The notes under the pieces are model-generated. The model had not been told where the DNA came from. It worked only from the letters and a program-made list of their open reading frames with translations, and ran no database searches. A stretch of 64,000 bases of DNA from a virus: positions 3,140 through 67,139 of IMG/VR virus record IMGVR_UViG_3300022226_000005. One strand, 5' to 3'. Made by a program: the position numbers and the translations under genes. Of the stretch, positions 1-44,940 are shown in pieces; the stretch's first letter is position 1, and each line of letters begins with the position of its first letter.

Positions 1-2
1 AA

Positions 3-1835
3 ACGGCTCAAGAGTTTACCTGGCGACATAACGCAGGCGCGGCAACAGGCGCGGCCCTGCTGATGACGCTGAATGATAGCGGCAACCTTTCAGTAACCGG
101 CGCAGTTACAGGCTCAAACCTCAACGTCTCTAACTGGGACACAGCGTTTGGGTGGGGCGATCACGCCGGTCTATATGCAGCTGCTTCTCATACGCACCTG
201 CTTGCAGCAGGCGCAACTGATGTGACGGCTACGGCAGCGGAAGTAAATCTGCTAGACTTGGCCGCGCTAACCGTTAACGATGTGCTGGTTGCATCCAGCG
301 CTTCTACTGCTGCTTGGCGACAACTCGTCGAGGCAGACATATCTGACTTCGGCAGTTATGCAGATGCTTCTCATACGCACTTACTTGCGGCGGGGGCAAC
401 TGATGTGACGGCTACGGCAGCGGAGCTGAACTTGCTCGACCTGGCGGGCTTGACTGCAGGGTGGGTATTGTCCGCCGACACAGCTACGACTGCCAGCTGG
501 AAAGCCCCGACAGCGGGCGTATCGGCCCTTGCCGATCTGACCGATGTAGTTAGCGCCACAAACACTGACAAGTTTGCCCTTATGGCAAACGGCACGACTG
601 GGTACGTAGGCAGAGCACTAGTTGAGGCAGACATATCTGACTTCGGCAGCTATGCAGCTGCTTCCCATACGCACCTGCTCGCGGCGGGGGCAACCGATGT
701 GACAGCTACGGCGGCAGAATTGAATCTGCTAGACTTGGCCGGTTTGACCGCAGGCTGGGTGTTGTCCGCTGACACAGCCACTACTGCGAGCTGGAAAGCG
801 CCAACAGGCGGTGGCGCATCAGCTCTTGCTGATTTGACCGACGTAGTCAGCGCCACAAACACCAACAGGTTTGCCCTTATGGCAAATGGCACGACTGGGT
901 ACGTAGGCAGGGCACTAGTTGAGGCCGACATCAGTGACCTCGGCAGCTATCTCCCACTTGGCGGTGGAACGGCAACCGGCAGGATCATAATTAATAATAC
1001 GGAAGACGTTGCCGTAGGCTCGTTATCCGGGCCACTGATTATAGGCGGCGACGGCACGGCTGCCCACATTGCCATTGACAACAACGAGATCATGGCGAAA
1101 GCTACAGCATCTACTGCGGCCACGCTGAACCTCAACGTTGAAGGCGGGTTAGTTAATATTGGATCAGGCGGCCTTACGGTGGCCGGGAACACAAATGTAA
1201 CCGGCGGTAACCTTTCAATTCCCACCGCTCTCAGACTGTACTTGGATGGCGGCGGCGACACGTATTTTATTGAATCAACGAGCAACACCGTGAGGCTTTT
1301 CACCGGTGGCGTACAAAGGCTGCAGGTCAGCACTACGTTCGCGATCAATACCGCAGCCTCCGTGAACGGGGCTCTTTCAATCCCGGCAGCTAGTAGGCTA
1401 TATTTAGACGGCGGGTCTAATACGTATATCCAAGAAGTCACCGCAGATGTACTGGGCCTCTTTGCTGCTAACGCTTCTCCGTTTCAAGTTACGTCAACTA
1501 CAGCGGAGTTTACAAAAGGAGTATCTGAACAGACACAGAGCTTTAGTACTTCGGGTACGCAAACCATGAACTTGGCGAACGCTAACTATTTCTATGTCAG
1601 CGGTGCTCTTGGAACAAACTCAATTACGTTCGCTTTTTCAAACGTGCCCGCCAGTACACGAGCTTGGTCCTGTACTTTGGAGTTGATTGACGCTGATGGC
1701 GCAACAATTACTTGGCCTACCGTTACCTGGGTTGGCGGTGCAGCACCTACGCTTAGTGCAAACAGAGACTTCATTGTTTTCTTTGGCCGCACGGGCACAA
1801 CTACGATTTACGCACAGCACGTCGGGAGCACGTAA
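3..1835 (+). CDS. Tail fibre protein, 5'-truncated by window edge
   Basis: Frame is open from base 3, upstream of the ATG at 63; Ala/Gly/Thr-rich with long internal repeats; directly followed by a gp38-like adhesin. Confidence 0.8.
   Translation, partial: TAQEFTWRHNAGAATGAALLMTLNDSGNLSVTGAVTGSNLNVSNWDTAFGWGDHAGLYAAASHTHLLAAGATDVTATAAEVNLLDLAALTVNDVLVASSASTAAWRQLVEADISDFGSYADASHTHLLAAGATDVTATAAELNLLDLAGLTAGWVLSADTATTASWKAPTAGVSALADLTDVVSATNTDKFALMANGTTGYVGRALVEADISDFGSYAAASHTHLLAAGATDVTATAAELNLLDLAGLTAGWVLSADTATTASWKAPTGGGASALADLTDVVSATNTNRFALMANGTTGYVGRALVEADISDLGSYLPLGGGTATGRIIINNTEDVAVGSLSGPLIIGGDGTAAHIAIDNNEIMAKATASTAATLNLNVEGGLVNIGSGGLTVAGNTNVTGGNLSIPTALRLYLDGGGDTYFIESTSNTVRLFTGGVQRLQVSTTFAINTAASVNGALSIPAASRLYLDGGSNTYIQEVTADVLGLFAANASPFQVTSTTAEFTKGVSEQTQSFSTSGTQTMNLANANYFYVSGALGTNSITFAFSNVPASTRAWSCTLELIDADGATITWPTVTWVGGAAPTLSANRDFIVFFGRTGTTTIYAQHVGST
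174..950 (+). repeat. In-frame tandem repeats in the tail fibre (units of 183, 294 and 297 nt)
   Basis: YA(A/D)ASHTHLLAAGATDVTATAAE(V/L)NLLDLA starts at 174, 357 and 651; LVEADISD(F/L)GSY closes each unit. Confidence 0.95.
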
Positions 1836-2650
1836 TGCGCGGGCGTACGGCAGGGCGGTTGCTTGTCGCATCTGGAAAAGTTTCACGACTGACGATCAGC
1901 GGCGGTACAAGCGTTGTGCTTACCAGCGTAACCGCCTTTACCAGCTTAGACAAGACTAAAAAAATAGTCGTCACGCTGACTGGCGCGTTTGGATCAAGTG
2001 CATCAGCCACACCAGCGTTTGATTGCGGCAACCTGTCGACCTGGAAAGACGTCGACATCATTATCGACTCTGGGTGCACAATATACGCTAGGGGCGGTAA
2101 CGGCGGTAGTGCTTCAGGCGGTAGCGGCGCACAAGGTGGGATCGGCCTGCAAGTTAACTCCAGCAATAGCTCCAGCGTCCTGTCAATAATAAACAACGGC
2201 ACCATCGCTGGCGGCGGAGGCGGCGGCGGCGCAGGCAGCCAGTCATCGGCCGCTGGGTATAACGGCCTCTCTAAATCCTGTAACTTTCTCGGAAACAGCA
2301 TAGCTGGCGGCGGAGGCGGCGGAGGCGGCCGTGGGCGAAACAACTCTGCGGGTGGCTCAGGCAGCTCAAACGTTTTGACGGCTTGTAGCGCTATACAGAC
2401 TGCGGGCTCTGGTGGCGCGGGCACTACAACTGCTGCTGGCGGCGGCGGCATAAGGGGCGAAGTATTTTACAGACCCGCAACTTGCCCGCCTTGTTCCTCC
2501 AACTCTCTTTTGGGTTGGGCAGGCGCGAGCGGCGGTTCGTGGTCAACCGCTGGTACCAACGCCACTGTAGGCGGTAGTGGAGGTGGTGCTGGCACTTCTG
2601 TCGCAAATCAGGCATCATGTGCGTGGACAGACAACGGAACGCTTCTTTGA
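1835..2650 (+). CDS. Glycine-rich receptor-binding adhesin, T-even gp38-like
   Basis: IYARGGNGG, GG.GLQVN, IINNGTIAGGGGGGG motifs match gp38 glycine-rich segments; follows the tail fibre. Confidence 0.75.
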   Translation: MRGRTAGRLLVASGKVSRLTISGGTSVVLTSVTAFTSLDKTKKIVVTLTGAFGSSASATPAFDCGNLSTWKDVDIIIDSGCTIYARGGNGGSASGGSGAQGGIGLQVNSSNSSSVLSIINNGTIAGGGGGGGAGSQSSAAGYNGLSKSCNFLGNSIAGGGGGGGGRGRNNSAGGSGSSNVLTACSAIQTAGSGGAGTTTAAGGGGIRGEVFYRPATCPPCSSNSLLGWAGASGGSWSTAGTNATVGGSGGGAGTSVANQASCAWTDNGTLL

Positions 2651-3075
2651 TAGTACTACCACACGACCGCCGCCCGACAGACCCACGCATCAATGTAGTG
2701 GCGTTCTGGCCATATCCGGAAACGACGCCAGCGAACAAACAGGCTTTTGCTTTAGACTATAACGCGCTGTCCGTCGTTTACGGGGTGGGCGTACAAATGG
2801 TCGACTTCCCGAGCGAAGAGCTGTTTTTCAACTCGTCGCCCCTAATCGCGGTCGAAGAATGGACTAATAACCCGACTGCGGTTGCGCTCAAAGATTTCGA
2901 GCACCCGATAAACGCTACATATATTATCGGCAACTCTCAGTATCGCTGGCCTAGCGGGCACTACGACGTCGCGCATAAGGTTTATTTTCGAACGCCGAAT
3001 CTTGTTCCCCTTTACGGGCACCAAGCAGCGGCAATAATTTTACAAGACAGGTGTGAAAAAAATGCAGGTATATAA
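2647..3075 (+). CDS. SPOUT (SpoU/TrmH-like) methyltransferase-like protein 1
   Basis: LKDFEHPINATYIIGNS...VYFRTP...LYGHQAAAIILQDR resembles the SpoU C-terminal knot; probable TTG start overlapping the upstream TGA. Confidence 0.6.
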   Translation: MIVLPHDRRPTDPRINVVAFWPYPETTPANKQAFALDYNALSVVYGVGVQMVDFPSEELFFNSSPLIAVEEWTNNPTAVALKDFEHPINATYIIGNSQYRWPSGHYDVAHKVYFRTPNLVPLYGHQAAAIILQDRCEKNAGI

Positions 3076-3352
3076 TAACTTTCGGGTCCTTAACTACGAC
3101 AAAGACATTGGGCACATGGAAACCGCGTGGTACAACGACCAGCTTCCTTTTGCTGGGCAGACCATACTACGTACTAACCTCAGGGTACCGCCCGAGTTCG
3201 AATCCGAGCTCTGGACGCGCGACCAACTTCGTCTTTATTGGCTTTCTACCGGCGCGGTCAACGACGTCCCCGCTATCCCACAGTGGGCGATAGATGAGGC
3301 CGAGGACACATACAGCGCATACGAATTCAAAGTCCGGATACGCACCCGCTAA
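3053..3352 (+). CDS. Hypothetical protein, possible tail-fibre assembly factor
   Basis: Tightly packed ORF in the tail operon; function inferred from position only. Confidence 0.5.
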   Translation: MKKMQVYNNFRVLNYDKDIGHMETAWYNDQLPFAGQTILRTNLRVPPEFESELWTRDQLRLYWLSTGAVNDVPAIPQWAIDEAEDTYSAYEFKVRIRTR

Positions 3353-4351
3353 ATGCTCAGTGACGCAGAGGTCGACGACCTGTTCGCCGGTACCACATTC
3401 GGCATCGAGTTCGATTGCGGTGAGTTCGACCGGCACGCACCGCTACCCGAAGGCCACACGTGGTGCACGGACGAGGTCGCGTCACACTCTTCGGCTGGGG
3501 TCGGCGCTGATCCATCGCTTCGATACAACATGTTCGGCGGCGAAGTCCAAACTGCGCCAGCAAACTCGGAAGAGCAGCTTTTCCAGTTTATAGACGACAT
3601 CCTGAGGGCAACACTTCCGCACGACAAGCTTCGTTTTTCTTCCACCATACACGTGCACGTGAGGATACCTAAGCTCCTTGAGCGCCCCGATTTGTTACGC
3701 CATCTTGTGCGGTGGTCCACGGAGTGGACTCCAGAACTTTCTAGCCACTGGTTTCGCTGGGAGGATACGGATTACAGCCACCTCCCGGAAGAAGCGCGTT
3801 GGTACTACAAGTGGTCCGAGGAGTGTAACCGCCGCGTCAAGACGGAAGTGTACGACAGCGCCGCTCTTGCACGCATGGACGCAGCACCTAGCACTCCGCG
3901 CGAAATAGCATGCGCTTTGCACGACAACCCGCGCGACTGGAAAAACGAGTGGACGTTTGACCTGAACAACAAAAACCGCGTCCACAGACCGGCGATAAAC
4001 TTTGGGCATCTTGCCTTGAATGAGACAATCGAGTTCCGGTGTTTCCAAGCTACCACCGACAGAGAGTGCCTGCGCAATATCATCGCGACTCCCCTCCGCG
4101 TGCTACGCGCTGCGTTAACCGGTGACCCCGATCCTGCGCGCGTAGTGCGAGGTGTCAGGTTCCAGGACAATTTTACGTTGATATGGGGCGACGATACGGA
4201 TAGCAAAATGATCGCTGCTGGCAAAACGAGTCTATACTTTAACACGCACGACGACTATCGGAACCGCATAGCGATAATGCTTATACAGAAACAGATCACT
4301 ATCGCCGACCTTAACTACCCCAAATACTGGATCGACAAAGGCTTTGAGTAG
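3353..4351 (+). CDS. Putative amidoligase (COOH-NH2 ligase fold)
   Basis: TFGIEFD, GGEVQT, STIHVHV, AINF, TIEFRCF motif order typical of the amidoligase family. Confidence 0.75.
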   Translation: MLSDAEVDDLFAGTTFGIEFDCGEFDRHAPLPEGHTWCTDEVASHSSAGVGADPSLRYNMFGGEVQTAPANSEEQLFQFIDDILRATLPHDKLRFSSTIHVHVRIPKLLERPDLLRHLVRWSTEWTPELSSHWFRWEDTDYSHLPEEARWYYKWSEECNRRVKTEVYDSAALARMDAAPSTPREIACALHDNPRDWKNEWTFDLNNKNRVHRPAINFGHLALNETIEFRCFQATTDRECLRNIIATPLRVLRAALTGDPDPARVVRGVRFQDNFTLIWGDDTDSKMIAAGKTSLYFNTHDDYRNRIAIMLIQKQITIADLNYPKYWIDKGFE

Positions 4352-5126
4352 GTTCGACCTGTCTTATTCCCGCAAAGAGCACTGCCGGGATTTTATAGCC
4401 GCGTTTCCCGACGCGCCAACCGGAACGTTTGTAACGAATAAGAACAGTATATGGATGGTAGCCAGGATCGACGGTTTTGTCGTGGGCGTTTGCTGCGCAG
4501 AGATCAAAGGCAAAGACACGTGGGAGTACCGCTCCGCGTACATACACCCTTTGTTCCGAGAGCAGGGGATATATGAAGCGTTGTCCTCATATCGAAAAAA
4601 CTACGTGGATAATTTCCATGTGAAAATAGGGAGCGAAGTTATGCAGTACCCTGAGACATGGCGCAAAGACGGCTTGTTCCCACCGCAGGATATACCGAAC
4701 AACTCAATAGTGGGGTTCTGGCCTATACCAGAAACGACTGATATGAACTTTACTGTGATGGAACAGCATTATCGGGCGCTTGCTTGTACTTACGGCATGG
4801 ACCTGCAGATGGTTGAGAAGCCCAGCCAAATTATCATTACTGACCACAGGCCGTGGATTTCAATCGAGGAATACAGAGAGGAGAAGCCTGGGGTAAGGTA
4901 CGACCAGTTTGAATATCCTGAGGAAGCGATCTACCTCGTTGGGAACTCAGCTTGGCGACACATGAGCGACATATTCGAAATCGACCACATTATCAATGTA
5001 CCTACCCCAGGAGGGTTCGCGCACCCGTTATACGGAAACCAGGTTGCCGCTATTGTGTTTCAGCAGCGGCATCTTCAGCATCCTTTTCTTTTGCCAGAAG
5101 AAAGTTGTGGAACGTTGCCAGCTTGA
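4344..5126 (+). CDS. GNAT acetyltransferase fused to SPOUT-like domain
   Basis: N-half has GNAT motif A (YIHPLFREQGIYEAL); C-half is a clear paralogue of 2647..3075. Confidence 0.65.
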   Translation: MSRFDLSYSRKEHCRDFIAAFPDAPTGTFVTNKNSIWMVARIDGFVVGVCCAEIKGKDTWEYRSAYIHPLFREQGIYEALSSYRKNYVDNFHVKIGSEVMQYPETWRKDGLFPPQDIPNNSIVGFWPIPETTDMNFTVMEQHYRALACTYGMDLQMVEKPSQIIITDHRPWISIEEYREEKPGVRYDQFEYPEEAIYLVGNSAWRHMSDIFEIDHIINVPTPGGFAHPLYGNQVAAIVFQQRHLQHPFLLPEESCGTLPA

Positions 5127-5280
5127 TCTTTAGCTGCACAGCAACTTCTGCTTGCTCGACCTTGATATCCGCGCCGTTTATCAACATAAGGACGTTTTTG
5201 ATATCTTGTGACTTTAACTGCGCCTTGTCTGCTTCTGTAGTAGGTGGCGCACTTTCTTTCGCTTTCGTTTTTGCTACCAT
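5050..5280 (-). CDS. Small helical hypothetical protein, antisense to the late operon
   Basis: AGGA 8 nt upstream of ATG; protein-like composition; fills a gap with no plausible plus-strand gene. Confidence 0.6.
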   Translation of the reverse strand: MVAKTKAKESAPPTTEADKAQLKSQDIKNVLMLINGADIKVEQAEVAVQLKIKLATFHNFLLAKEKDAEDAAAETQ

Positions 5281-5310
5281 GAACGGTGTCCTAGGGTTAG
5301 TTCAGGACGA

Positions 5311-5784
5311 ATGATACCACGGGGAAACAGCCCCGTACACCGATTTATACACTCCTTAGAGGCAGACTACGTGAAATACGATTTCTCCCAAGACCCAGAC
5401 TACTTGGACATAGCGGCTGATATCATTGGCGTACCATATTTTGATGCTAATACCACGTACACAATCGCCATCTTTGACGACGATTGTGAGTTTCAGGCGG
5501 TAGTTTTGTACAATAACTGGGAAGAAAGGAACGTGTCTATGCACATAGCGTCGGTGTCGCCCAAGTGGGCAACGCTAGGTTCGCTTCGAACTGTTTTCGC
5601 GTACCCGTTCCAAGAGCTAGGCGTACACCGAGTGACGGCTGCTACGCGGGAGAACAACGCAAAAGCGCGCTCCATGCTTGCCCGCCTTGGGTATAAGCAA
5701 GAAGGCGAGCTTCGCCAATATTACGAGACCGGAGAAAGTGATATCATCTACGGTATGACCAGAGACGAATGCAGGTGGATTTGA
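5311..5784 (+). CDS. RimJ/RimL-type GNAT acetyltransferase (start may be GTG 5371)
   Basis: VHRVTAATRENNAKARSMLARLGYKQEG motif; position before internal virion genes is usual for podoviruses. Confidence 0.85.
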   Translation: MIPRGNSPVHRFIHSLEADYVKYDFSQDPDYLDIAADIIGVPYFDANTTYTIAIFDDDCEFQAVVLYNNWEERNVSMHIASVSPKWATLGSLRTVFAYPFQELGVHRVTAATRENNAKARSMLARLGYKQEGELRQYYETGESDIIYGMTRDECRWI

Positions 5785-6462
5785 ATGGGTAAAAAAAGCG
5801 CCAAGACACCTCAAGCGTCTTCGCAAGAAGTGGCCCTGGCCGATGTCGCGAAAAAGAAATTCGAGACGTATAAGCGCCTATACCGGCCGCTTGGCAAAGA
5901 AATGCTCAAGCGCAGCTCCGCGACAGAAGGCAAAATTAAAGAAGTCCAAGGCTTGGTCAACGCCGATGTGCAGCAGGCTAGCGCGGGCAGGGATTCTGCT
6001 ATTGCCGCCGCCGGTTTACGCGGCGGGCTGAAAGCCTCTGATAGCCGCGTGCTTATGTCCCGTGGCGCAAACCAGGAAGCTATTGCTACTGCGCGCGGCG
6101 CAGGTAGCGCGGCTGCCCGTCAAGGAGTTATGGCGGCTGACAGGGCGGGGAAAGAAGGGTACGTAGCGCTTGGCCACGGTATTGCCCGCCAAAGCATAGC
6201 GTCGCAAACTGGCCTCGCGCAAGACGCCACTAGTTCAGCCATCCAAGCAGCACAGTTGAAACTGAAGAAGGCCGACCAAATTGCCACCGGGCTTGGCAGC
6301 TTTTTTGGTGCGGCAGCGGGGATGTCAGAAGCAGGTTTGGGAGGTGGCGGCACGGCGGCTCGGCCACAGTTCGGCATGTACCAACTTGGCAACGCTGGCA
6401 GCGGTGCTGACGGCGGCGCTTACAGTTACGGCGGTTTTACCGGCGGCAGGAGCATGCGCTAA
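5785..6462 (+). CDS. Probable internal virion/ejection protein
   Basis: MGKKS start, Ala/Gly/Gln-rich helical sequence, position after the GNAT. Confidence 0.6.
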   Translation: MGKKSAKTPQASSQEVALADVAKKKFETYKRLYRPLGKEMLKRSSATEGKIKEVQGLVNADVQQASAGRDSAIAAAGLRGGLKASDSRVLMSRGANQEAIATARGAGSAAARQGVMAADRAGKEGYVALGHGIARQSIASQTGLAQDATSSAIQAAQLKLKKADQIATGLGSFFGAAAGMSEAGLGGGGTAARPQFGMYQLGNAGSGADGGAYSYGGFTGGRSMR

Positions 6463-7133
6463 TGGCTATCGGAAAAAACAACGAGCAGTATACAGGCTCT
6501 AGTAAACCCCGATACTGGGAGCTTAAGGGCGGCAACCACATGGCGAACTACCAAGCCCCTACGCCCGCCGAAAGCCCCGGCGACATACTTGCGAACATAA
6601 CAAACGAAGACTTTGCAATCTACGAGCAGGACTTCCTGCCAGTAGAAGAACAACTGATCGCCGACGCAACTGACGCGGAATCTGGCAACAAGGCGGCGGA
6701 AGCTGCTCTGGCCGACACGCTGTCTGGGTATGACCGGCAACGCGCAGTCGGGGAACGCGGTCTCGGCCGCACAGGGGTTGCTATGACTGCGGGGCAACAA
6801 GCCAAAGTCGACCAACTATCCGGGCTAGGCCGCACGCAAGCTGGCGTAGGCTCCGCCAACTTAGCACGTCGCGGGCAAAATGCCCAAAATGACGCAACCA
6901 TAACGAACCTCGTGCAAGCGGGCCAGTCCCTTCGCGGCGTAGCCCTGCAGGGGCTCGGCGCTGCGTCTTCTATGGAAACTCAGCGTAACCAAGCTGGCGA
7001 AGCGATGAAGTCGCAAGCGTTTGGCCAAACGATGTCGAATATTGGTACGGGCGCAGGCATAGGATTCGCGGCCTTCGGCCCTGTCGGCGCTGTTGCCGGT
7101 GCTGGCATCGGGCTTCTAACATCACTGTTTTAG
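6462..7133 (+). CDS. Probable internal virion/DNA transfer protein
   Basis: Ala/Gln/Gly-rich with hydrophobic glycine-zipper C-terminus (GAGIGFAAFGPVGAVAGAGIGLL). Confidence 0.65.
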   Translation: MAIGKNNEQYTGSSKPRYWELKGGNHMANYQAPTPAESPGDILANITNEDFAIYEQDFLPVEEQLIADATDAESGNKAAEAALADTLSGYDRQRAVGERGLGRTGVAMTAGQQAKVDQLSGLGRTQAGVGSANLARRGQNAQNDATITNLVQAGQSLRGVALQGLGAASSMETQRNQAGEAMKSQAFGQTMSNIGTGAGIGFAAFGPVGAVAGAGIGLLTSLF

Positions 7134-7142
7134 GAACATAGA

Positions 7143-9149
7143 ATGGCTTTCGGAGAAGGTTTTTTAGCGGGTCTACAAGTGGGGCAGCAATACCGCCACA
7201 AAGAAGAGCTGATGCGCCAGCGCAAGGAAGACCGCGATATCGAAGCTTATGGGCGCGACTTGGAAAGCCTGATGAACGACTGGCAAAACACCAAGGGCGA
7301 CCGGACTGATGAAGAGTTTGTAAACTCCGAAGAGTTCGCTTCTCTGGCGAAGCGCCACCGCAACAGCAAGGTTTTGGAGAAAGCCATCCAGACAGGTTTG
7401 CCCGAAGGCAAAGTCGCTAAGCTGCGCGATATACGCAAGAGCCCCGACGGCCGCAACGTTCTTATCGTGGACACCTACGATAAGAACGGCCGACTGATAA
7501 GCAAAGGTCGCCCCGTCACCGAGGACAGATCATCCCGTGAAGACAATCCGAACGCTAAAGTTCTTCAACTTACCAACAAAGAGATGTACCAAGGTCTCGT
7601 GGGTGCTCTCCAACAGTCGCCCGACTACGTTGACCGTAGAGGTCTCGCGGATCGCTTTGAGGCAACCGTTTCTGCGGTTGATCCAGCAGGCAAAAGCGTT
7701 ACGAAGAATGGTAAGACCGCGCCAATATCAGACGACAATACCCCGCCCCCTAAACCGGAAGCGCCGCTCGACTCAATAACGAAGCCCACTTCTACGGTTG
7801 AGGCCACGCCCGTGCCTGAAGACCCGCAAGCTCCTGCTGAGCCTCTGCCTACACCAGCCGAGCAAGTCGCCGCGCAGAAACAACAGATCGCCGAGTTAGA
7901 GGCGCAGCACAACGCACTTCGCGCTGAGCTCGATGAACTCGAAGACGTGGACAACAAACGCAGTTCGCAAATGACTCACGAGCAGTACATCGCGCATCGT
8001 CGCGAGCTCGCGATGAAGGCCGATCAGTTGGGCCAGATTCAAGGGCAGCTCGACGAGTTGACCGGCGGCTCGATGGCGCGTAGAATGGGGGCTTCGCTCA
8101 GCGAAGTGCCAGGCGACTTTGTTCGTGGTGTAGGTGAATTTGGAGAAGCAATTGCTGATATCCCCGCCGTTAAAGGCGTTTCAAAAGTTGTCGGGGACTT
8201 CCTTAGCGGCCTCAGAACTGGCGAAGGCACGCCACCGCCTAAGGGCACGAAGCAGAGCGAACGGTTTGAGTATGGCGCTGACGCCCAGGTCTTGCCCAAG
8301 CTCAAAGACAAAAAAGGACCCCTCGACCCGAGTAACCTTAAGGATCGTTCACGAGCGCAACAAAACAAGATTGAGGATGTCGCAGGGAAAACTGCCTTAG
8401 CTGTAGCGAACAACGAAAAACTTAGCCGCAAGATGCTGAACGATTATCGGAAGGCTCTGCGGGCACAAGTGGTTTACGGGGATATTACTCCCGCGCAAGC
8501 CACGGCCAGTTACTACGCGGTGCTCGCGGCCACCAAGTCAAAGGACTCGTACAAGCTGCAGCTTGATAGCAAAAACGGCGTGGCGTTCCTCCTGAATGAG
8601 GCCGACGGCAGCGTTACCCGCAGCCAATATGCCAATCCTACGAGCGACGACAAGGGTCCAGGCAGCCAAAGCTACAGCCTCAAAGACTACAAGCAACTCG
8701 TTACAATGGGTGAGATTATAACTCGTGGTGACGAGCACAGGCTGGCCGACTTCATGGCAGTCGCCGACCAAACCCGCGACGCGCTGGGTTTGTTTAACCT
8801 TGCAGAACCTGGTACGCACTCCGTACTTTCTAAAGCTTTCGGCATGTGGGAGAGCAAAGTAAATAGTGCCGCTAATTGGAACCCCTTCCTAAGCGTCGCA
8901 GGCTCCAAGAGCAAAAACCCAAGTTTGTCGCCATTCATCGCGTCCCAAGTACTGAGCGTGCCTATGGACGACCGAGGCCAAGACATGCTGGATGATTTTG
9001 CTGGTAGCCTCGCTATTATCAACGGCGGCAACAAGCTGACTGAGGAACACTGGGCAGGCGTGATCGCGATGGCCCAAGCGTACGCTAAGCAAGGCGTAAC
9101 GGGTAAAGCAGCGCTAGACGCGATAGTCCGTGAACTTTCGGGTAAATAA
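7143..9149 (+). CDS. Probable internal virion/ejection protein, 668 aa
   Basis: MAFGEGFLAGLQ start, coiled-coil and Pro-rich linker, synteny. Confidence 0.55.
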   Translation: MAFGEGFLAGLQVGQQYRHKEELMRQRKEDRDIEAYGRDLESLMNDWQNTKGDRTDEEFVNSEEFASLAKRHRNSKVLEKAIQTGLPEGKVAKLRDIRKSPDGRNVLIVDTYDKNGRLISKGRPVTEDRSSREDNPNAKVLQLTNKEMYQGLVGALQQSPDYVDRRGLADRFEATVSAVDPAGKSVTKNGKTAPISDDNTPPPKPEAPLDSITKPTSTVEATPVPEDPQAPAEPLPTPAEQVAAQKQQIAELEAQHNALRAELDELEDVDNKRSSQMTHEQYIAHRRELAMKADQLGQIQGQLDELTGGSMARRMGASLSEVPGDFVRGVGEFGEAIADIPAVKGVSKVVGDFLSGLRTGEGTPPPKGTKQSERFEYGADAQVLPKLKDKKGPLDPSNLKDRSRAQQNKIEDVAGKTALAVANNEKLSRKMLNDYRKALRAQVVYGDITPAQATASYYAVLAATKSKDSYKLQLDSKNGVAFLLNEADGSVTRSQYANPTSDDKGPGSQSYSLKDYKQLVTMGEIITRGDEHRLADFMAVADQTRDALGLFNLAEPGTHSVLSKAFGMWESKVNSAANWNPFLSVAGSKSKNPSLSPFIASQVLSVPMDDRGQDMLDDFAGSLAIINGGNKLTEEHWAGVIAMAQAYAKQGVTGKAALDAIVRELSGK

Positions 9150-9151
9150 CC

Positions 9152-10741
9152 GTGGCCGAAGATGGTTTCACCAAATTTCTAGCCTCCAAAGTAAGGGACG
9201 CCGATACATTTGAGGGCCCTGGCGGGGAACCCAAACGTATACTCGGCATTGATGCTCCTGAGTCGGGCACACCTGCGGGCGAAGCTGCGACAGACTTCAC
9301 TAAGAAACTTTTAGCTGCAAAAGAAATTTCTGCAAAAGAGAGCGGCAAAAAAGGTTACTACGGCCGCGACCTCGTCGAAGTAAAAATTGATGACACTGAC
9401 CAGCCGCTGGGCGCGCACTTAGCGCGGCTTGGCTACGCTCGGCCAGTAGGGGGAAGCGAATTTGACGACGAAATCAACCGCGCGGAAACGGCGTCCACAG
9501 CTGCCCGCGTACTTGGTGTTCAGGAGCGAGGCGTACAGAATGCTTACGACATCGACCTGTCCGGAGCGACAGCGACTGATCTCGGATCTCGGGCAGGTAC
9601 GTTTGGCAAAGCGGTTGGTCGCGGCGTCGATCAAGTCCAGCAGCTAGGCTATTCTGCGCTCAACGTCGGAGCGATGGCTCTTGGGGATTTATTCGGGACC
9701 GAAGTATTAGATAGTTGGGGCGAGGAAGGCCTACGCCGCAATATGATCGAGGCCGCGATGAACCCCGCAGAGGTACAAACGTGGGACGACGTCGAAAACC
9801 TGTCGACCGGCTTCACGTACGTATTGGAAGCGCTCGGCGAGCAGCTCCCCAACATAGCTACTTTGGTCGGCACCGGTGGTGCTGGCGCGCTTGTTAAAGG
9901 CGGCGTGAGCAAGCTCGTTCAGGCCGGTATCCAGAAGAAGCTCGCCCAGCTCGCCCTCAAGCAGGGCAACAACCTCCAAGTAGCAAAGATCGTAAAAGGC
10001 GGCTCTGGCTTTACTCCCGGCATTGCGGCCGGGTCATACGTTATGGGCACCGGCGAGATCGGAAATGAATTGAGGGAGGCCGGTATCGACTCTCCCGGCA
10101 CAGCTTTGCTCGGCGCGGTTCCGTTTGCCGCGCTCGACACCCTGGGCTTCCAGACGACCATTGGAAGGTTATTCAAAGGCATAGACAAGGACATCGCCAC
10201 TCAGTCCGTAAAGGACATAGCACGCAGCACATTCAGGGCAGCTGGCATAGGCGCGGCTGCTGAGTCATCCACGGAGATGCTACAGGAGGTGATCACATTA
10301 TCTGCTCGCGCTTTCCACGACCCGACTTTTGAGATATTCAGCGACGAGAACTTGGCAAGGATCAAAGAAGCTGGTATAAAAGCAGGTATCGTAGGTGGCG
10401 TGTTCGGTGGCGGAGCTACTGCCATCAACAAGACTGTAGGGAAGCTTACACAACCGCCAGTAGCACCGGCGGAGACCGACGCGGTGACGACCCCGTCGGA
10501 AGCTACACCGCCTCCCCCACCGCCCGGTGGGGGAGTAACAACTTTTCCCCAGCGCGACACTGACTACGGATATATACCAGATGAAGCTACAGTGCCCGCC
10601 CAAGAACTCTTCGAGGATGCCCCGCCCAATGCTGTCGTCTCCATTCGCGGCATGCTTGAGCAGGAAATTGAACCCCAGCTTGCTAAAGCTGAAACGCAAA
10701 TCAATGCTTACGAAGCGTTGAGGAGTTGCTTAGCATCATGA
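9152..10741 (+). CDS. Probable ejection protein with N-terminal SNase (thermonuclease)-like domain
   Basis: VRDADT, RILGIDAPE, GYYGRDLV, LARLGYA motifs; remainder Gly/Ala-rich with hydrophobic helices. Confidence 0.7.
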   Translation: MAEDGFTKFLASKVRDADTFEGPGGEPKRILGIDAPESGTPAGEAATDFTKKLLAAKEISAKESGKKGYYGRDLVEVKIDDTDQPLGAHLARLGYARPVGGSEFDDEINRAETASTAARVLGVQERGVQNAYDIDLSGATATDLGSRAGTFGKAVGRGVDQVQQLGYSALNVGAMALGDLFGTEVLDSWGEEGLRRNMIEAAMNPAEVQTWDDVENLSTGFTYVLEALGEQLPNIATLVGTGGAGALVKGGVSKLVQAGIQKKLAQLALKQGNNLQVAKIVKGGSGFTPGIAAGSYVMGTGEIGNELREAGIDSPGTALLGAVPFAALDTLGFQTTIGRLFKGIDKDIATQSVKDIARSTFRAAGIGAAAESSTEMLQEVITLSARAFHDPTFEIFSDENLARIKEAGIKAGIVGGVFGGGATAINKTVGKLTQPPVAPAETDAVTTPSEATPPPPPPGGGVTTFPQRDTDYGYIPDEATVPAQELFEDAPPNAVVSIRGMLEQEIEPQLAKAETQINAYEALRSCLAS

Positions 10742-34628: not shown

Positions 34629-35831
34629 TTAGGCGTCCGATATTTCAAGGAATACGGATTCGCCAAACTCGGGTTCTGGTGAATCTCTACACGTTCTTAT
34701 CCATAAGGTTGGATATTCGGGTGGCTGGAAGTCTGTGTTTGCGTAGCCGTCTGTTAGGTAAACAATACATTCCGGTTGTATGTTTTGTTTTTGAATCCAG
34801 TCGAATACTGGTTTGAAGTCGGTGCCTCCGCTACCACGTACTTTGAGTTTGAGTGGGAGGTCTTCAGGTTCATATTCTGTGTGGTTGTGTACTCGTGTGT
34901 TGCACATGACTACGGTCATTTTGCTTGGCGGGCAGTCTTCCAGGATGGCGTTGAGTTCGCCTTGGAATTGTTTGATTTCGTTGTTGGATACTGAGCAGGA
35001 GTCATCGATGGCGATTACGATTTCGCCCATCGATTCTGACCATTGGGATGGTAGGTAAAGGCCTTGGCTGATGTATCGGCGGTTGCCTTTTGCCCAAGAA
35101 TAGTCGGATTTGTCTGATTGTGTTAGGAAGCGGCGGAGGATTTCTTTCCATTGGACTTTTGGAGCCAGGATATCCATCATGATGTCTTCGATGCCGCCGG
35201 GGAGGTTTCCTTGCATTTTGGCGGCTTTTGCCGCTTGCGCAGTTGAGATTTTCCAGTCGTCGTCAAGTTCTTTATCCGACTGTGTAGTCGTTTTGCCTTG
35301 ACCCTTAGATGGATCGTCTTTACCAGTTCCTCCAGTTGGGGCGTCGTTAATTCCGGAAAAATTCGGCGGGCCTTCTCCATCGCCGTCTCCATCATCATCA
35401 TTGTCCTCTAGCTTGTTGTAAATGACTTCTGCGGTCATGCCTTTGTATTGCATGTCGCATGGGGATTCAGGCGGGAGTTCGAGGTCTTTGCAGTCGCTGA
35501 GGATGATATTTACTGCGTGGTCGCATGCACGATCCCACTTACCTTTATCTCGGTCTCCGCGACGTACGACGTGGCCAAGTGCGCAGTGCATCACGTTTTG
35601 TGCGATGCCGCCGACGAGCTGTCGTTCGTTTAGTTCACCGATATTTTCTGGGTTATAGAATAGATTTACCCCGTCTACGTGCATGTGTTTGACGTTGGTT
35701 GTCGGGACGTAGTTGAGTTTTAAGGCTAGAGACCCGAAGAACGGGTGGTCTAGGACCAGGTTGGCTTTTGCTTTACGCAGCCCTTCTTGTACGATCTTTG
35801 GATCGATTGGTGGATCTTTTTCGCTCATCAT
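34629..35831 (-). CDS. Metallopeptidase-like plus VWA domain protein (DUF2201-like)
   Basis: HPFFGSL, DGVNLFYNP, DDSCS (MIDAS), GGTDF, YLTDG. Confidence 0.85.
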   Translation of the reverse strand: MMSEKDPPIDPKIVQEGLRKAKANLVLDHPFFGSLALKLNYVPTTNVKHMHVDGVNLFYNPENIGELNERQLVGGIAQNVMHCALGHVVRRGDRDKGKWDRACDHAVNIILSDCKDLELPPESPCDMQYKGMTAEVIYNKLEDNDDDGDGDGEGPPNFSGINDAPTGGTGKDDPSKGQGKTTTQSDKELDDDWKISTAQAAKAAKMQGNLPGGIEDIMMDILAPKVQWKEILRRFLTQSDKSDYSWAKGNRRYISQGLYLPSQWSESMGEIVIAIDDSCSVSNNEIKQFQGELNAILEDCPPSKMTVVMCNTRVHNHTEYEPEDLPLKLKVRGSGGTDFKPVFDWIQKQNIQPECIVYLTDGYANTDFQPPEYPTLWIRTCRDSPEPEFGESVFLEISDA

Positions 35832-38474: not shown

Positions 38475-38949
38475 TTGGGAGGAACCTTTTTAGTTCGGGA
38501 AAACGTATGAGTGCTTTTTCGATTGTTGTTTCTCGTAAAGCTTCGCTTGCTGCTTCGAGCAGGGCTTCTCTAGCTGTGGCGAGTTCGCGAACCCGCTCGT
38601 GATATTTTTGTATTGCGGGCGGGATACTGTTGGTTTTTACATAGAGTCTTGTATAGTAGCCGCCGCCGCTGATGGTGTCGTCGTTGTATTCTTTTGCGTT
38701 GAGTGCGCCGTATTTATTGGGTGGTAGGTTTACGTTCCATAGATTGACGTTGTGGTCTGTGCTGAACATTACGCGCCGCCAGATATCTTCATAGAAATGG
38801 GGGTGAATTTCTTTGTCTATTTTGTATTTTTCTAGTAGCGGTAAAGATTCCTGGTAGTAGTCAGGCTCTTTGATTTTTTCTTTGGCTTGGTTGAAAAAAT
38901 TATTGATGCTGAGCCTGACTAAGGAGCGTATTTCGTTGTTTGTTCTCAC
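38449..38949 (-). CDS. Hypothetical protein, Nmad5-like
   Basis: C-terminal TIEKALIRFPELKRFLP; GTGA overlap with the AAA gene stop. Confidence 0.45.
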   Translation of the reverse strand: MRTNNEIRSLVRLSINNFFNQAKEKIKEPDYYQESLPLLEKYKIDKEIHPHFYEDIWRRVMFSTDHNVNLWNVNLPPNKYGALNAKEYNDDTISGGGYYTRLYVKTNSIPPAIQKYHERVRELATAREALLEAASEALRETTIEKALIRFPELKRFLPNAIINQLT

Positions 38950-39932
38950 AGAAGAATGTCCGTGTTGTCCGCGATCCATTCGGCCATTTCCTTGGTTTCG
39001 AGAAGATCGGGTGAGCGTTGGATAGTCATCTTGACTGTCGGGACTTGGAACTCATCTGGCATGCGGCGCAGGTATTCGTTGACTTTTGGGATGTTCTTTT
39101 CGGTCATGTGTTCTGAGAGCATGCCTGCGGTGGCGTATAGCGATGCTGGTTCTGAGGGCATTGGTGTGCCTTGGGGATCTTTTTCGATTGATTCGATGTC
39201 CGGTAGGTCACGGTAAATTCGGATATAGGACATGAATTCGCCAGCTGCAGCTTCGCCGACGGCGGCAATCAGCATTTCGTATTCCAGGTCTGGTGTTGCG
39301 TTATCCAGGATGCGAGATGCGTAAGCCCATGTACGCGGTGTTGCGAAAGAGCGGTGATCTTTGCCGGGATCGTGGTCGTGTAGCATTTCCGGGCGGAACC
39401 GCATGAAAGATACGATTTCGGGGCGGATATTGTTGTTGTTCGCCCAGTTGACCCAGTCGTTCAGCTGCGGTTCGAAATCCACGTGAATCAGCCTGTTGTT
39501 CAGCGCTGAGGACATTTTGTTTGCGAGAGCCCGATCTTGTGCGCGGTTACCGGCACAGATGATTCTCCATCCTTCGGGGAGTTCGTAGTCGCCTACTTTG
39601 CGGTCCAGGATCAGTTGGTATGCTGCGGCTTGGACAGAGTGCGAGGCTTGGTTGATCTCGTCGAAGAACATGATTCCTTCGGGCTCAACATCGGGGTTTG
39701 GCAGGAAGTGTGGTACGTTCCAGATGGTGTAGCCGTCTAGGCAGGAAGGAATACCTCGGATGTCGACGGGGTCCATTTGTGAGAGGCGTATGTCTCTTAC
39801 GGGGATGCCGAGGGAGGCTCCGATTTGGAAAACAGTTTCGGATTTACCTACTCCGGGTGCACCCCATATCATGACGGGGATGTCAGCGTTGAGGCCTACT
39901 TGGATTGCGCTTGCAGCTTTGGACGGGTTCAT
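38946..39932 (-). CDS. MoxR-type AAA+ ATPase
   Basis: GAPGVGKS, DIRGIP, FFDEINQA, AGN, ALNNRL, TPRTW. Confidence 0.92.
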   Translation of the reverse strand: MNPSKAASAIQVGLNADIPVMIWGAPGVGKSETVFQIGASLGIPVRDIRLSQMDPVDIRGIPSCLDGYTIWNVPHFLPNPDVEPEGIMFFDEINQASHSVQAAAYQLILDRKVGDYELPEGWRIICAGNRAQDRALANKMSSALNNRLIHVDFEPQLNDWVNWANNNNIRPEIVSFMRFRPEMLHDHDPGKDHRSFATPRTWAYASRILDNATPDLEYEMLIAAVGEAAAGEFMSYIRIYRDLPDIESIEKDPQGTPMPSEPASLYATAGMLSEHMTEKNIPKVNEYLRRMPDEFQVPTVKMTIQRSPDLLETKEMAEWIADNTDILL

Positions 39933-44219: not shown

Positions 44220-44311
44220 TAGAACCGATCGGATTCGAACCGATGTCTGCTCAATCCGCCCTTATTACCAGGCTTCAAGCGAGCCGTGTTTCCTTATTAC
44301 ACCACGGTTGT
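44220..44311 (-). tRNA. tRNA-like element with 19-nt anticodon-loop insertion (nominal Ser-UGA)
   Basis: D stem GTGT/ACAC, anticodon stem GCTCG/TGAGC enclosing 26 nt, T arm ATCGG-TTCGAAT-CCGAT; C-C mismatch at 2:71; no CCA. Confidence 0.55.
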
Positions 44312-44362
44312 TTGGGCTACGAGCCCACCTCCGTACACGCTTCTCATAAGCGCTTTGAGGGT

Positions 44363-44593
44363 TCATTTGGTAGGGTGTTTCGCTAGTTGGCTTTTCAGGT
44401 TGCGTACCTGATAGGCGCGTTTGGCGAGCGCTTTGTTGGCGCGTTGGACTTCACCCAGGTAAATAAGTGATTGTAGGCGGTAACGATCGGCGAGGCGAGC
44501 GTTTTCTGTGGCCAGGTTTTTGTAGTAGCCGAGATGGCCTTCGAAGTTGGGTTGTTCGGGTTTTTCGATGAGTTTCAGGTGTTGTTGGGACAT
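44363..44593 (-). CDS. Small coiled-coil protein
   Basis: GAGGA SD before ATG 44593. Confidence 0.6.
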   Translation of the reverse strand: MSQQHLKLIEKPEQPNFEGHLGYYKNLATENARLADRYRLQSLIYLGEVQRANKALAKRAYQVRNLKSQLAKHPTK

Positions 44594-44628
44594 GTTGTTT
44601 CCTCTTGGTATGTGCGAAGTGCGAAGTG

Positions 44629-44698
44629 CGTAGCGCCACGGGATCGAACCGCGCCGTTTTAGTTTTGGAAACTTAACCGCCCCTTGGCTGAGCGCTAC
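44629..44698 (-). tRNA. tRNA-Trp(CCA)-like with reduced D arm
   Basis: Perfect acceptor GTAGCGC/GCGCTAC, T arm CGCGG-TTCGATC-CCGTG, loop TTCCAAA; 3-bp D stem with 4-nt loop; no CCA. Confidence 0.6.
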
Positions 44699-44704
44699 AT
44701 TGGT

Positions 44705-44776
44705 TGGTTGCGGGGGGTGGATTTGAACCACCGAGGTCCGGGTTATGAGCCCAGATTGAGACCGACCTCCCCCGCC
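44705..44776 (-). tRNA. Initiator-type tRNA-Met(CAT) with reduced D arm
   Basis: CTGGG-CTCATAA-CCCGG (three G-C pairs), 1:72 mismatch, T arm, encoded ACCA. Confidence 0.8.
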
Positions 44777-44863
44777 AGAATTTGCTCCGTGTTTGTTCGG
44801 CTGTCCTACAGCCACTCACCATCCGAGCAAGAAAATGAGAGGATCACGGCGTCCTTCGTGCTC

Positions 44864-44940
44864 TGGCTCCAAGAGCTGGGATCGAACCAGCGACCATCGC
44901 TTTAACAGAGCGGCGCTCTACCTGTCTGAGCTATCTTGGA
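44864..44940 (-). tRNA. tRNA-Asn(GTT)
   Basis: Canonical 77-nt cloverleaf with encoded CCA. Confidence 0.95.

Follow-up and report, generated by a model that had tools for sequence, protein, structure and literature searches.

What four tightly coupled genes do immediately behind a phage adhesin is the question raised by a viral DNA stretch of 64,000 nucleotides (nt), positions 3,140 to 67,139 of the IMG/VR virus record IMGVR_UViG_3300022226_000005 (hereafter the window). Its source is a viral contig of 68.7 kb from sediment metagenomes, which is complete according to CheckV and of which the window covers most, and the initial 23 kb of the window form a block of structural genes on the plus strand. 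Within this block, at 2647–5126, lie four translationally coupled plus-strand genes, here named A, B, C and D, directly 3' of a gene for an adhesin with a Pfam GP38 match. An earlier reading of the sequence (the original prediction) had taken them for a new modification system composed of SPOUT, amidoligase and GNAT-SPOUT proteins, acting either on the Gly-rich adhesin or fibre, or on tRNA. Our analysis shows that the conserved core of this module is A, B and C, that D is a lineage-specific add-on, and that A and B go with the adhesin. We consider it quite possible, though still short of probable, that the module is a protein-modification pathway which targets either the tip of the fibre or the Gly-rich GP38-like adhesin, with a putative substrate and a putative chemistry.

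The adhesin (1835–2650, plus strand, 271 amino acids (aa), isoelectric point (pI) 9.4) matches Pfam GP38 with an E-value of 1.1e-11 and 45.4 bits (cut-off 25), which confirms the adhesin proposed directly upstream of the four genes, and its PHROG assignment is tail fibre/host specificity. Its poly-Gly blocks are conserved across 10 GP38-like homologues. All four open reading frames (ORFs) were found on the plus strand at the coordinates proposed, overlapping or abutting one another, so the tight coupling first noticed is real. Gene A (2647–3075, 142 aa) starts from the TTG at 2647, which gives a homologue-like N-terminus (the alternatives are ATG 2617 and GTG 2623), and shares a 4-nt overlap, TTGA, with the adhesin gene, the TGA of which stands at 2648–2650. 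Gene B (3062–3352, 96 aa) encodes a small acidic protein; its ATG at 3062 fits the N-termini of the homologues (the alternative GTG at 3053 would give 99 aa), and the A/B overlap is 14–23 nt. The ATG of gene C (3353–4351, 332 aa) abuts the TAA of B, and C overlaps gene D (4344–5126, 260 aa, with TTG as start) by 8 nt. On the 3' side of D there are a short convergent ORF, a gene for a complete GNAT (E) and then further virion proteins. Promoter-like and terminator-like sites in 1–9200 are not more frequent than in shuffled sequence, and thus nothing divides the cassette from the surrounding structural genes. No RNA sequencing run containing the locus was found, so that its co-transcription with the structural genes, and the timing of its expression, would follow from gene position only.

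For the census of related loci, hidden Markov models (HMMs) of the SPOUT-like domain, B, C, the N-terminal domain of D, the GP38-like protein and E were run on every ORF of some 50 loci taken from collections of viral, genomic and metagenomic sequence; for the GP38-like census, Gly-rich patterns were of insufficient complexity. The gene order GP38-like protein, SPOUT-like protein (A), B and amidoligase (C) was present in all of the ten lineages with sequence upstream of A (WIN, that of the window, and L003, L006, L011, L015, L025, L026, L031, L036 and L050), so the co-occurrence with gp38-like adhesins that had been put forward as a check does hold, over a range of 37–100% identity of C to that of the window. 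B is found in every A-type locus, invariably between A and C, and is duplicated in some of them. The order is A-B-B'-A'-C in L011 (2973–5499) and in L038–L040, and A-B-B'-C in L015 (4913–7008), so that A and B behave as a pair; the B copies of the most distant lineages, which have these internally duplicated modules, are only 23–38% identical to B of the window. In contrast to A, B and C, which recur, D occurs in three lineages (WIN/L028, L002 and L045) and travels with E, the second GNAT gene, which lies outside 2647–5126; E is located 3' of D in WIN, L002 and L045, that is, in every D-type lineage with sequence downstream of D. The four-gene cassette of the original prediction is therefore retained in its first three genes and not in its fourth. 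Moreover, the fibre family F3, to which the fibre gene of the window belongs, was found by BLASTP clustering at 9 loci and is located upstream of the module every time. The full module of GP38-like protein, A, B and C is also present in L026 (CP070792.1, a 3.17-Mb chromosome of a Gemmatimonadota metagenome-assembled genome (MAG)) and L025 (a contig of a Pseudohongiellaceae MAG), which may be prophages and hint at hosts; L026 has an additional 166-aa ORF between the adhesin and A.

The closest complete relative, G001 (locus L002; complete, 75.5 kb), indicates how these genes are inherited. Its C is 79% identical to that of the window, and the two genomes are collinear downstream. The DNA similarity starts at window position 3367 (9066 in L002), 14 nt into C, and continues from there at 67–77% identity, and there is nothing upstream, where Mtd_N-type fibre proteins are encoded in L002 in place of the fibre/adhesin/A/B block. 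Neither GP38 nor A nor B was found in L002 by the same searches that detect them in the window's own genome. L002 keeps C, D and E, and its sole SPOUT-like domain is that in D. The similarity boundary at the start of C suggests that A and B were exchanged together with the adhesin, with C-D-E staying in place. The element shared upstream in L002 is the F3 fibre family. The fibre protein of the window (3–1835, plus strand, a distal tail-fibre gene by ORF and translation, with the 5' end beyond the window) consists of three tandem copies of a unit of about 90 residues (SHTHLLAAGATDVTATAAE.NLLDLA...W(K/R)), and this unit occurs once in a 205-aa protein directly 5' of C in L002.

The paralogous motifs quoted in the original prediction are all present, and A is 38% identical to residues 118–242 of D (E 3e-28), a paralogy far beyond chance. 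The model of D, obtained with AlphaFold2 (AF2) from 53 sequences, has a pLDDT of 89.3 and a pTM of 0.84. In this model residues 115–250 superpose on solved domains such as TARBP1, TrmH, RrmA, TrmJ and TrmL (Foldseek probability 1.00); the Z-score is 12.2 against 2ha8, with a root-mean-square deviation (rmsd) of 2.9 Å over 119 residues, and 10.5–11.5 against TrmH, RrmA, TrmJ and TrmL. The superposition takes in the C-terminal strand and helix that form the knot in solved SPOUT domains. Thus the SPOUT fold is borne out for D by superposition on solved SpoU/TrmH-class domains, and A, the stand-alone and divergent member, would have the same fold, given its identity to D, the model of D and the family profile. 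An exhaustive profile search gave 127 clusters (at 50% identity) of this domain family, and a scan with a narrower SPOUT alignment gave few loci. The weak tail of the family search includes a protein that passes the Pfam SpoU model, and the family profile aligns with a true Pfam SpoU protein at an hhalign probability of 96% (E 1.5e-9); the sequence matches of the family to SpoU methylases in the Protein Data Bank (PDB) are weak. Pfam SpoU_methylase (PF00588) gave no match at E <= 1 for A, for D or anywhere in the genome.

The conserved residues of the family differ from those of TrmH. The motif-1 region reads F/W-P-x-P-E-T, with a conserved Glu replacing the Asn of TrmH, and the column of the motif-1 Arg varies: roughly one copy in two has R, and the remaining ones have N, G, W, L, S, I or E (Asn in A and Arg in D of the window). 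Motif 2 is G-N-S with an invariant Gly, not G-N-E, and motif 3 is P-L-Y-G-x-Q, not S-L-N. Since the Asn/Arg of TrmH motif 1 is not conserved and motifs 2 and 3 are changed, the methylation step of the original prediction is an assumption and not a finding. Furthermore, six of the conserved polar columns are acidic and two are basic, and this acidic conservation, together with the lack of a conserved counterpart of the TrmH Arg, makes a poor fit to an RNA enzyme. In SPOUT proteins, the segments of motifs 2 and 3 form the cofactor-binding loops of the knot. The invariant Gly, Tyr-Gly and Gln of the A/D family fall in the segments that align to these two motifs, and hence the ligand pocket is probably kept. 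Taken together, the domain of A and D is a SPOUT fold, yet no ordinary SpoU methylase. The same SPOUT-like domain is fused to a full GNAT in the reverse order in two metagenomic proteins (P0049 and P0079), and the fusion in both orders shows a functional tie between the two domains; the contigs of the reverse fusions and of the weaker family members were too short for informative context. The phage of L006/L007/L014 has a second, far more distant SPOUT-like gene (L006 13304–13687, 127 aa, E about 1e-9 to the family HMM), which lies about 5 kb 3' of A-B-C and adjoins a gene for a 554-aa protein.

No sequence library names A, B or C, and the sequence profiles of C and D gave only noise against the PDB, so that structures and fold searches were needed. 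The AF2 model of C from 22 homologues (pLDDT 91.9, pTM 0.91) matches in the PDB, according to Foldseek, GshF (bifunctional glutathione synthetase), GCL (glutamate-cysteine ligase), GS and PafA, and its matches in the AlphaFold database are named 'Amidoligase enzyme' with a probability of 1.00. In an exhaustive comparison with 48,161 PDB representatives (VIA), the top 19 matches (Z 5.2–9.1, 17 of them at Z >= 7.3) all belong to one superfamily, with the YbdK-like 1tt4 ranking first and with GS, GCL, GshF, PafA and Dop among them, and after the 19th the Z-score drops to 4. The amidoligase motifs claimed for this gene are thus supported by a model that matches only the GS/GCS/PafA superfamily in the PDB. 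At the sequence level, PF12224 is weakly touched by 5 of the 22 family members (best E 4.4e-5) and faintly matched by P0037, and C of the window itself has no Pfam match. Eight residues are invariant in the 22 sequences (E19, D21, E64, H100, H102, R104, E227 and R229) and are located on predicted strands; as a pattern, they may constitute the metal/ATP site of such ligases. C is predicted to be a divergent Amidoligase_2, with the GS/GCS/PafA fold and the activity of an ATP-dependent carboxylate-amine ligase. The absence of the usual partners of phage amidoligases, which had been noticed in the window, extends to the whole 68.7-kb genome, where neither ATP-grasp (ATP-grasp_4) nor glutamine amidotransferase (GATase_6) was found by searches with positive controls in 13–14 reference genomes. 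A distant homologue of C (28% identity over 41% of the query) occurs in Vibrio phage 2.275.O (L019, MG592671.1, 332034–337242), directly 5' of a 7-deazaguanine/queuosine set that comprises a QueF-like reductase, a transporter, a queuosine biosynthesis protein, a nucleophile aminohydrolase and a GTP cyclohydrolase I.

Protein B has no match in Pfam, PHROGs, NCBIfam, PADLOC or the PDB, and its Atlas model is poor and has unspecific look-alikes only. Its family has nine invariant residues (W26, P46, E48, W54, I75, P76, W78, A79 and E82). The N-terminal domain of D was considered as a fused copy of B, which was rejected at an hhalign probability of 0.1%. Instead, residues 1–95 of D superpose on GNATs over their N-terminal two thirds, or first ~100 residues, with Z-scores of 10–11.5. 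The GNAT motif A ascribed to this protein holds in so far as a motif-A-like R-E-Q-G-I-Y is present on a GNAT superposition; however, the fold is truncated, as the GNAT portion (residues 1 to ~110) contains β1–β4/α3 followed by a low-confidence linker, with α4-β6-β7 missing from the model, and the Pfam score is just below the threshold (19.4 vs 20.7 bits). The acetyl-CoA site of D may be incomplete or completed by the partner domain. The GNAT::SPOUT fusion is conserved in 7 homologues, and the start codon of D (4344–4346) is TTG in the window and L002, GTG in L028 and ATG in L045. Inside D there is a further in-frame ATG, at 4641, with AGGGAG 5' of it at a spacing of 6 nt (region 4629–4643), and the database gene call for D in this genome is a SPOUT-only product of 161 aa. 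A Shine-Dalgarno-like GAGGAAG is found at the equivalent place in L002 and L028, where it coincides with conserved Gly-Ser codons. It is possible that D yields two isoforms, one of full length and one with the SPOUT domain only.

In D-type lineages gene E (5311–5784, plus strand, 157 aa) adds a complete GNAT acyltransferase, which matches phrog_4470 (acyl-CoA N-acyltransferase, E 4.8e-33) and weakly Pfam Acetyltransf_3/8 and NCBIfam RimI/RimJ/PseH. The genes 3' of C vary between the lineages. A 2-oxoglutarate (2OG)-Fe(II) oxygenase gene stands beside C in L003 and L031, a Sulfotransfer_2 protein (27.9 bits, cut-off 22) is encoded 3' of C in L026, a helix-turn-helix-phosphoesterase follows C in L006 and L015, and L031 and L028 (here between B and C) encode a protein of 240 aa with language-model features like those of Asp/Asn β-hydroxylases. 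The tailoring genes beside C (2OG oxygenase, sulfotransferase, AspH-like protein and RimI/J-like GNAT) are of protein-modifying types.

On these grounds, we favour a modification of the adhesin or the fibre tip, considering the strict linkage to the GP38-like gene, the conservation that is not RNA-like, and the precedent of bacterial operons with β-hydroxylases, sulfotransferases, acetyltransferases and methyltransferases, for which the predicted substrates are phage-tail-collar-like or glycine-rich proteins encoded along with the enzymes (Iyer et al. 2010, PMC2938197). In such a pathway, C would use ATP to activate a carboxylate (the side chain of a target Asp/Glu, a C-terminus or a small acid) and couple it with an amine. 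The proteins with the SPOUT fold, either homodimeric or heterodimeric, would transfer a group from a cofactor like S-adenosylmethionine (SAM) or hold the substrate, and B, matched to the adhesin, would be an adaptor or the subunit that gives specificity. Further groups would come from the tailoring enzymes of each lineage, by GNAT acylation here and by hydroxylation and sulfation in relatives, and in the end the chemistry of the receptor-binding surface would be altered. In its most explicit form, in which the phages of this group edit their own receptor-binding tip with a SPOUT enzyme shifted from RNA to protein, a GS-like ligase and the B adaptor placing amide-linked and other groups on the adhesin, and hydroxylases, sulfotransferases and acyltransferases as swappable add-ons, the proposal is more doubtful.

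Several points weigh against a modified adhesin or fibre tip. C-D-E persists in L002 without GP38, and thus GP38 cannot be the sole substrate. To our knowledge, all characterised SPOUT enzymes except the yeast Sfm1 act on RNA, and the nearest solved structures to the SPOUT half of D are tRNA/rRNA 2'-O-methyltransferases. Sfm1 is a SPOUT protein arginine methyltransferase and thus a precedent for the fold acting on protein; it is absent among the matches listed for D (the best 50 per fold search), and no specific similarity to it was found. The enzymes are acidic and the adhesin is basic in net charge, but this contrast is a weak argument because the proteome is acidic overall (median pI 5.9). 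When B was predicted in complex with A and C, the score was 0.19 where the mark was 0.32, which gives no verdict either way. Among the tailoring genes, the 2OG-Fe(II) oxygenase is just under the cut-off of PF13640 (26 vs 27 bits), and the AspH likeness of the 240-aa protein comes from language-model features only. In addition, a gene order that is conserved in phage structural blocks can stem from inheritance and not from function, and the modification itself, the binding of SAM, acetyl-CoA and ATP, and the contact with GP38 are predictions.

The same linkage could arise if the module worked on the other partner of adsorption, modifying a host surface component or precursor seen by the adhesin, or producing a small metabolite with an amide link. 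Superinfection would thereby be blocked, or progeny kept from sticking to debris, and the genes would be linked to the adhesin because both must match one receptor, as Llp of phage T5 is linked to the gene for the T5 receptor-binding protein. The joint exchange of A and B with the adhesin would suit this equally, the nearest solved structures to C are small-molecule ligases (YbdK-like, GCL and GS), Pfam Sulfotransfer_2 is known mainly for carbohydrate sulfotransferases, and the PseH-like GNAT matches are sugar enzymes; earlier phage amidoligase modules were also proposed to modify peptidoglycan (PMC6256558). On the other hand, no glycosyltransferase, membrane, export or lipid-carrier gene is present among the module neighbours scanned, which were a part of the neighbours, no SPOUT enzyme is known for sugars or lipids, and expression together with the structural genes would be late for an exclusion role, so we regard an action on the receptor side as unlikely. 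A target in RNA, the other alternative of the original prediction, seems to us more unlikely still. In that case the SPOUT proteins would 2'-O-methylate tRNA or rRNA, and the ligase and GNATs would build or extend a base modification that shields tRNAs from anticodon nucleases or retunes translation; GNATs, 2OG oxygenases and ATP-dependent ligases all include tRNA-modifying members. The nearest folds (TARBP1, TrmH, TrmL and TrmJ) fit this, as do the reach of the family profile to true SpoU methylases and the three tRNAs encoded by the phage. However, the module lies within the structural block, always joined to the adhesin gene and away from both the replication genes and the tRNAs (44.2–44.9 kb); the family scores under the Pfam SpoU threshold, with a conserved Glu for the motif-1 Asn, a variable Arg column and P-L-Y-G-x-Q in motif 3; and its conserved polar residues are acidic, the net charge of the D family being about -20. 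The place in the structural block, the exchange of A and B with the adhesin and the protein-type tailoring enzymes in relatives lead us to favour the adhesin or fibre over tRNA.

It is improbable, in our estimation, that A and B are non-catalytic factors for the assembly or attachment of a particular adhesin, built on a SPOUT scaffold, with only C (and D and E) being enzymatic and having an unrelated target; C, for example, might join fibre and adhesin covalently through an isopeptide bond. Genes 3' of fibre genes often encode chaperones, the presence of A and B varies with that of GP38, the family has not conserved the canonical catalytic residues of SPOUT enzymes, and PafA, a structural relative of C, makes isopeptide bonds between proteins. 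Nevertheless, the invariant Gly, Tyr-Gly and Gln in the motif 2/3 segments look like a preserved pocket and not a bare scaffold, and fusions of this SPOUT domain with GNAT enzymes exist in both orders. A hypermodification of DNA bases before packaging, for which the amidoligase homologue adjoining 7-deazaguanine synthesis genes in Vibrio phage 2.275.O could be cited, is very improbable, since a scan of 20 proteins from the replication region gave no DNA-modification gene (TGT/DpdA, QueC/D/E, hydroxymethylase or kinase), SPOUT enzymes are not known to act on DNA, and the module is linked to the adhesin and not to replication genes.

Compared with known systems, the folds are familiar ones, and what is new is the combination of genes, the signatures of the families and protein B. 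The domain of A and D resembles the SpoU/TrmH class (TrmL, TrmH, TrmJ and TARBP1; PF00588) in its α/β-knot-type fold over the whole domain of about 135 residues (Z 10–12, rmsd about 3 Å), in its minimal TrmL-like size, and in the retained Gly-Asn of motif 2 and hydrophobic helix of motif 3, but differs in its sub-threshold Pfam scores, three altered motifs and acidic conserved residues, and in the place of its genes among tail-fibre genes and not translation genes. C is like the Amidoligase_2 (PF12224), GS, GCS2 (YbdK) and PafA ligases in its fold, and is phage-borne as are known amidoligase modules; its invariant set of E/D, E, H-x-H-x-R and E-x-R would suit an activation of carboxylates that depends on ATP and metal. 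The phage amidoligase modules of the phiEco32, RIO-1 and PhiM6 type, as far as they are presented in PMC6256558 (citing Iyer et al. 2009), differ in that the partners of C are SPOUT-like proteins and B, not an ATP-grasp enzyme and a class-II glutamine amidotransferase, and in that C adjoins an adhesin. The operons in PMC2938197 share with our module a variable set of hydroxylase, sulfotransferase and acetyltransferase beside a glycine-rich fibre-type protein as the presumed substrate; they were described without SPOUT, a GS-like ligase or B, belong to bacteria and not to a phage fibre block, and are also predictions. With GNATs such as RimI/RimJ and AAC(6'), D shares β1–β4/α3 in residues 1–95 and E the complete fold, whereas D is without α4-β6-β7 and is fused to a SPOUT domain. 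Among 50,697 cultured-phage records there was no homologue of A, B, D or the GP38-like protein and no DNA match to the cassette, only two distant amidoligases. PADLOC gave no defence-system relatives, and our literature searches turned up neither a SPOUT-amidoligase pairing nor any enzymes linked to gp38.

Elsewhere in the genome, the 76-aa convergent ORF between D and E (5050–5280, minus strand) overlaps the final 77 nt of D and is conserved in L002, where 41 of the 69 aligned residues are identical and the mismatches per codon position are 19/18/36; the excess at third positions indicates that it is probably a genuine small gene on the opposite strand in the plus-strand block. ARAGORN located the three tRNA genes at 44220–44940 on the minus strand, one of which (44220–44311) has an oversized anticodon loop with no assignable anticodon. 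The replication-side block includes genes for a DUF2201 metallopeptidase/VWA-like protein and a MoxR-type AAA ATPase at 34629–35831 and 38946–39932 (both on the minus strand), near those for DNA polymerase A, an SNF2 helicase, a PD-(D/E)XK nuclease and a DUF5906 primase-helicase.

Whatever the target is, the module brings to light an unannotated SPOUT family of 127 clusters with conserved residues that do not look suited to RNA, a new set of partners for phage amidoligases, and a recurrent small protein, B, without a known fold; its genes are all short and their products look soluble. Current explanations of host range in tailed phages rest on the sequence of the receptor-binding proteins. If the adhesin is modified, a set of enzymes that is inherited and swapped together with it would place a chemical layer on host recognition. 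Such a post-translational layer of host-range determination would be unseen by sequence-based host prediction and would be relevant to the engineering of fibres.

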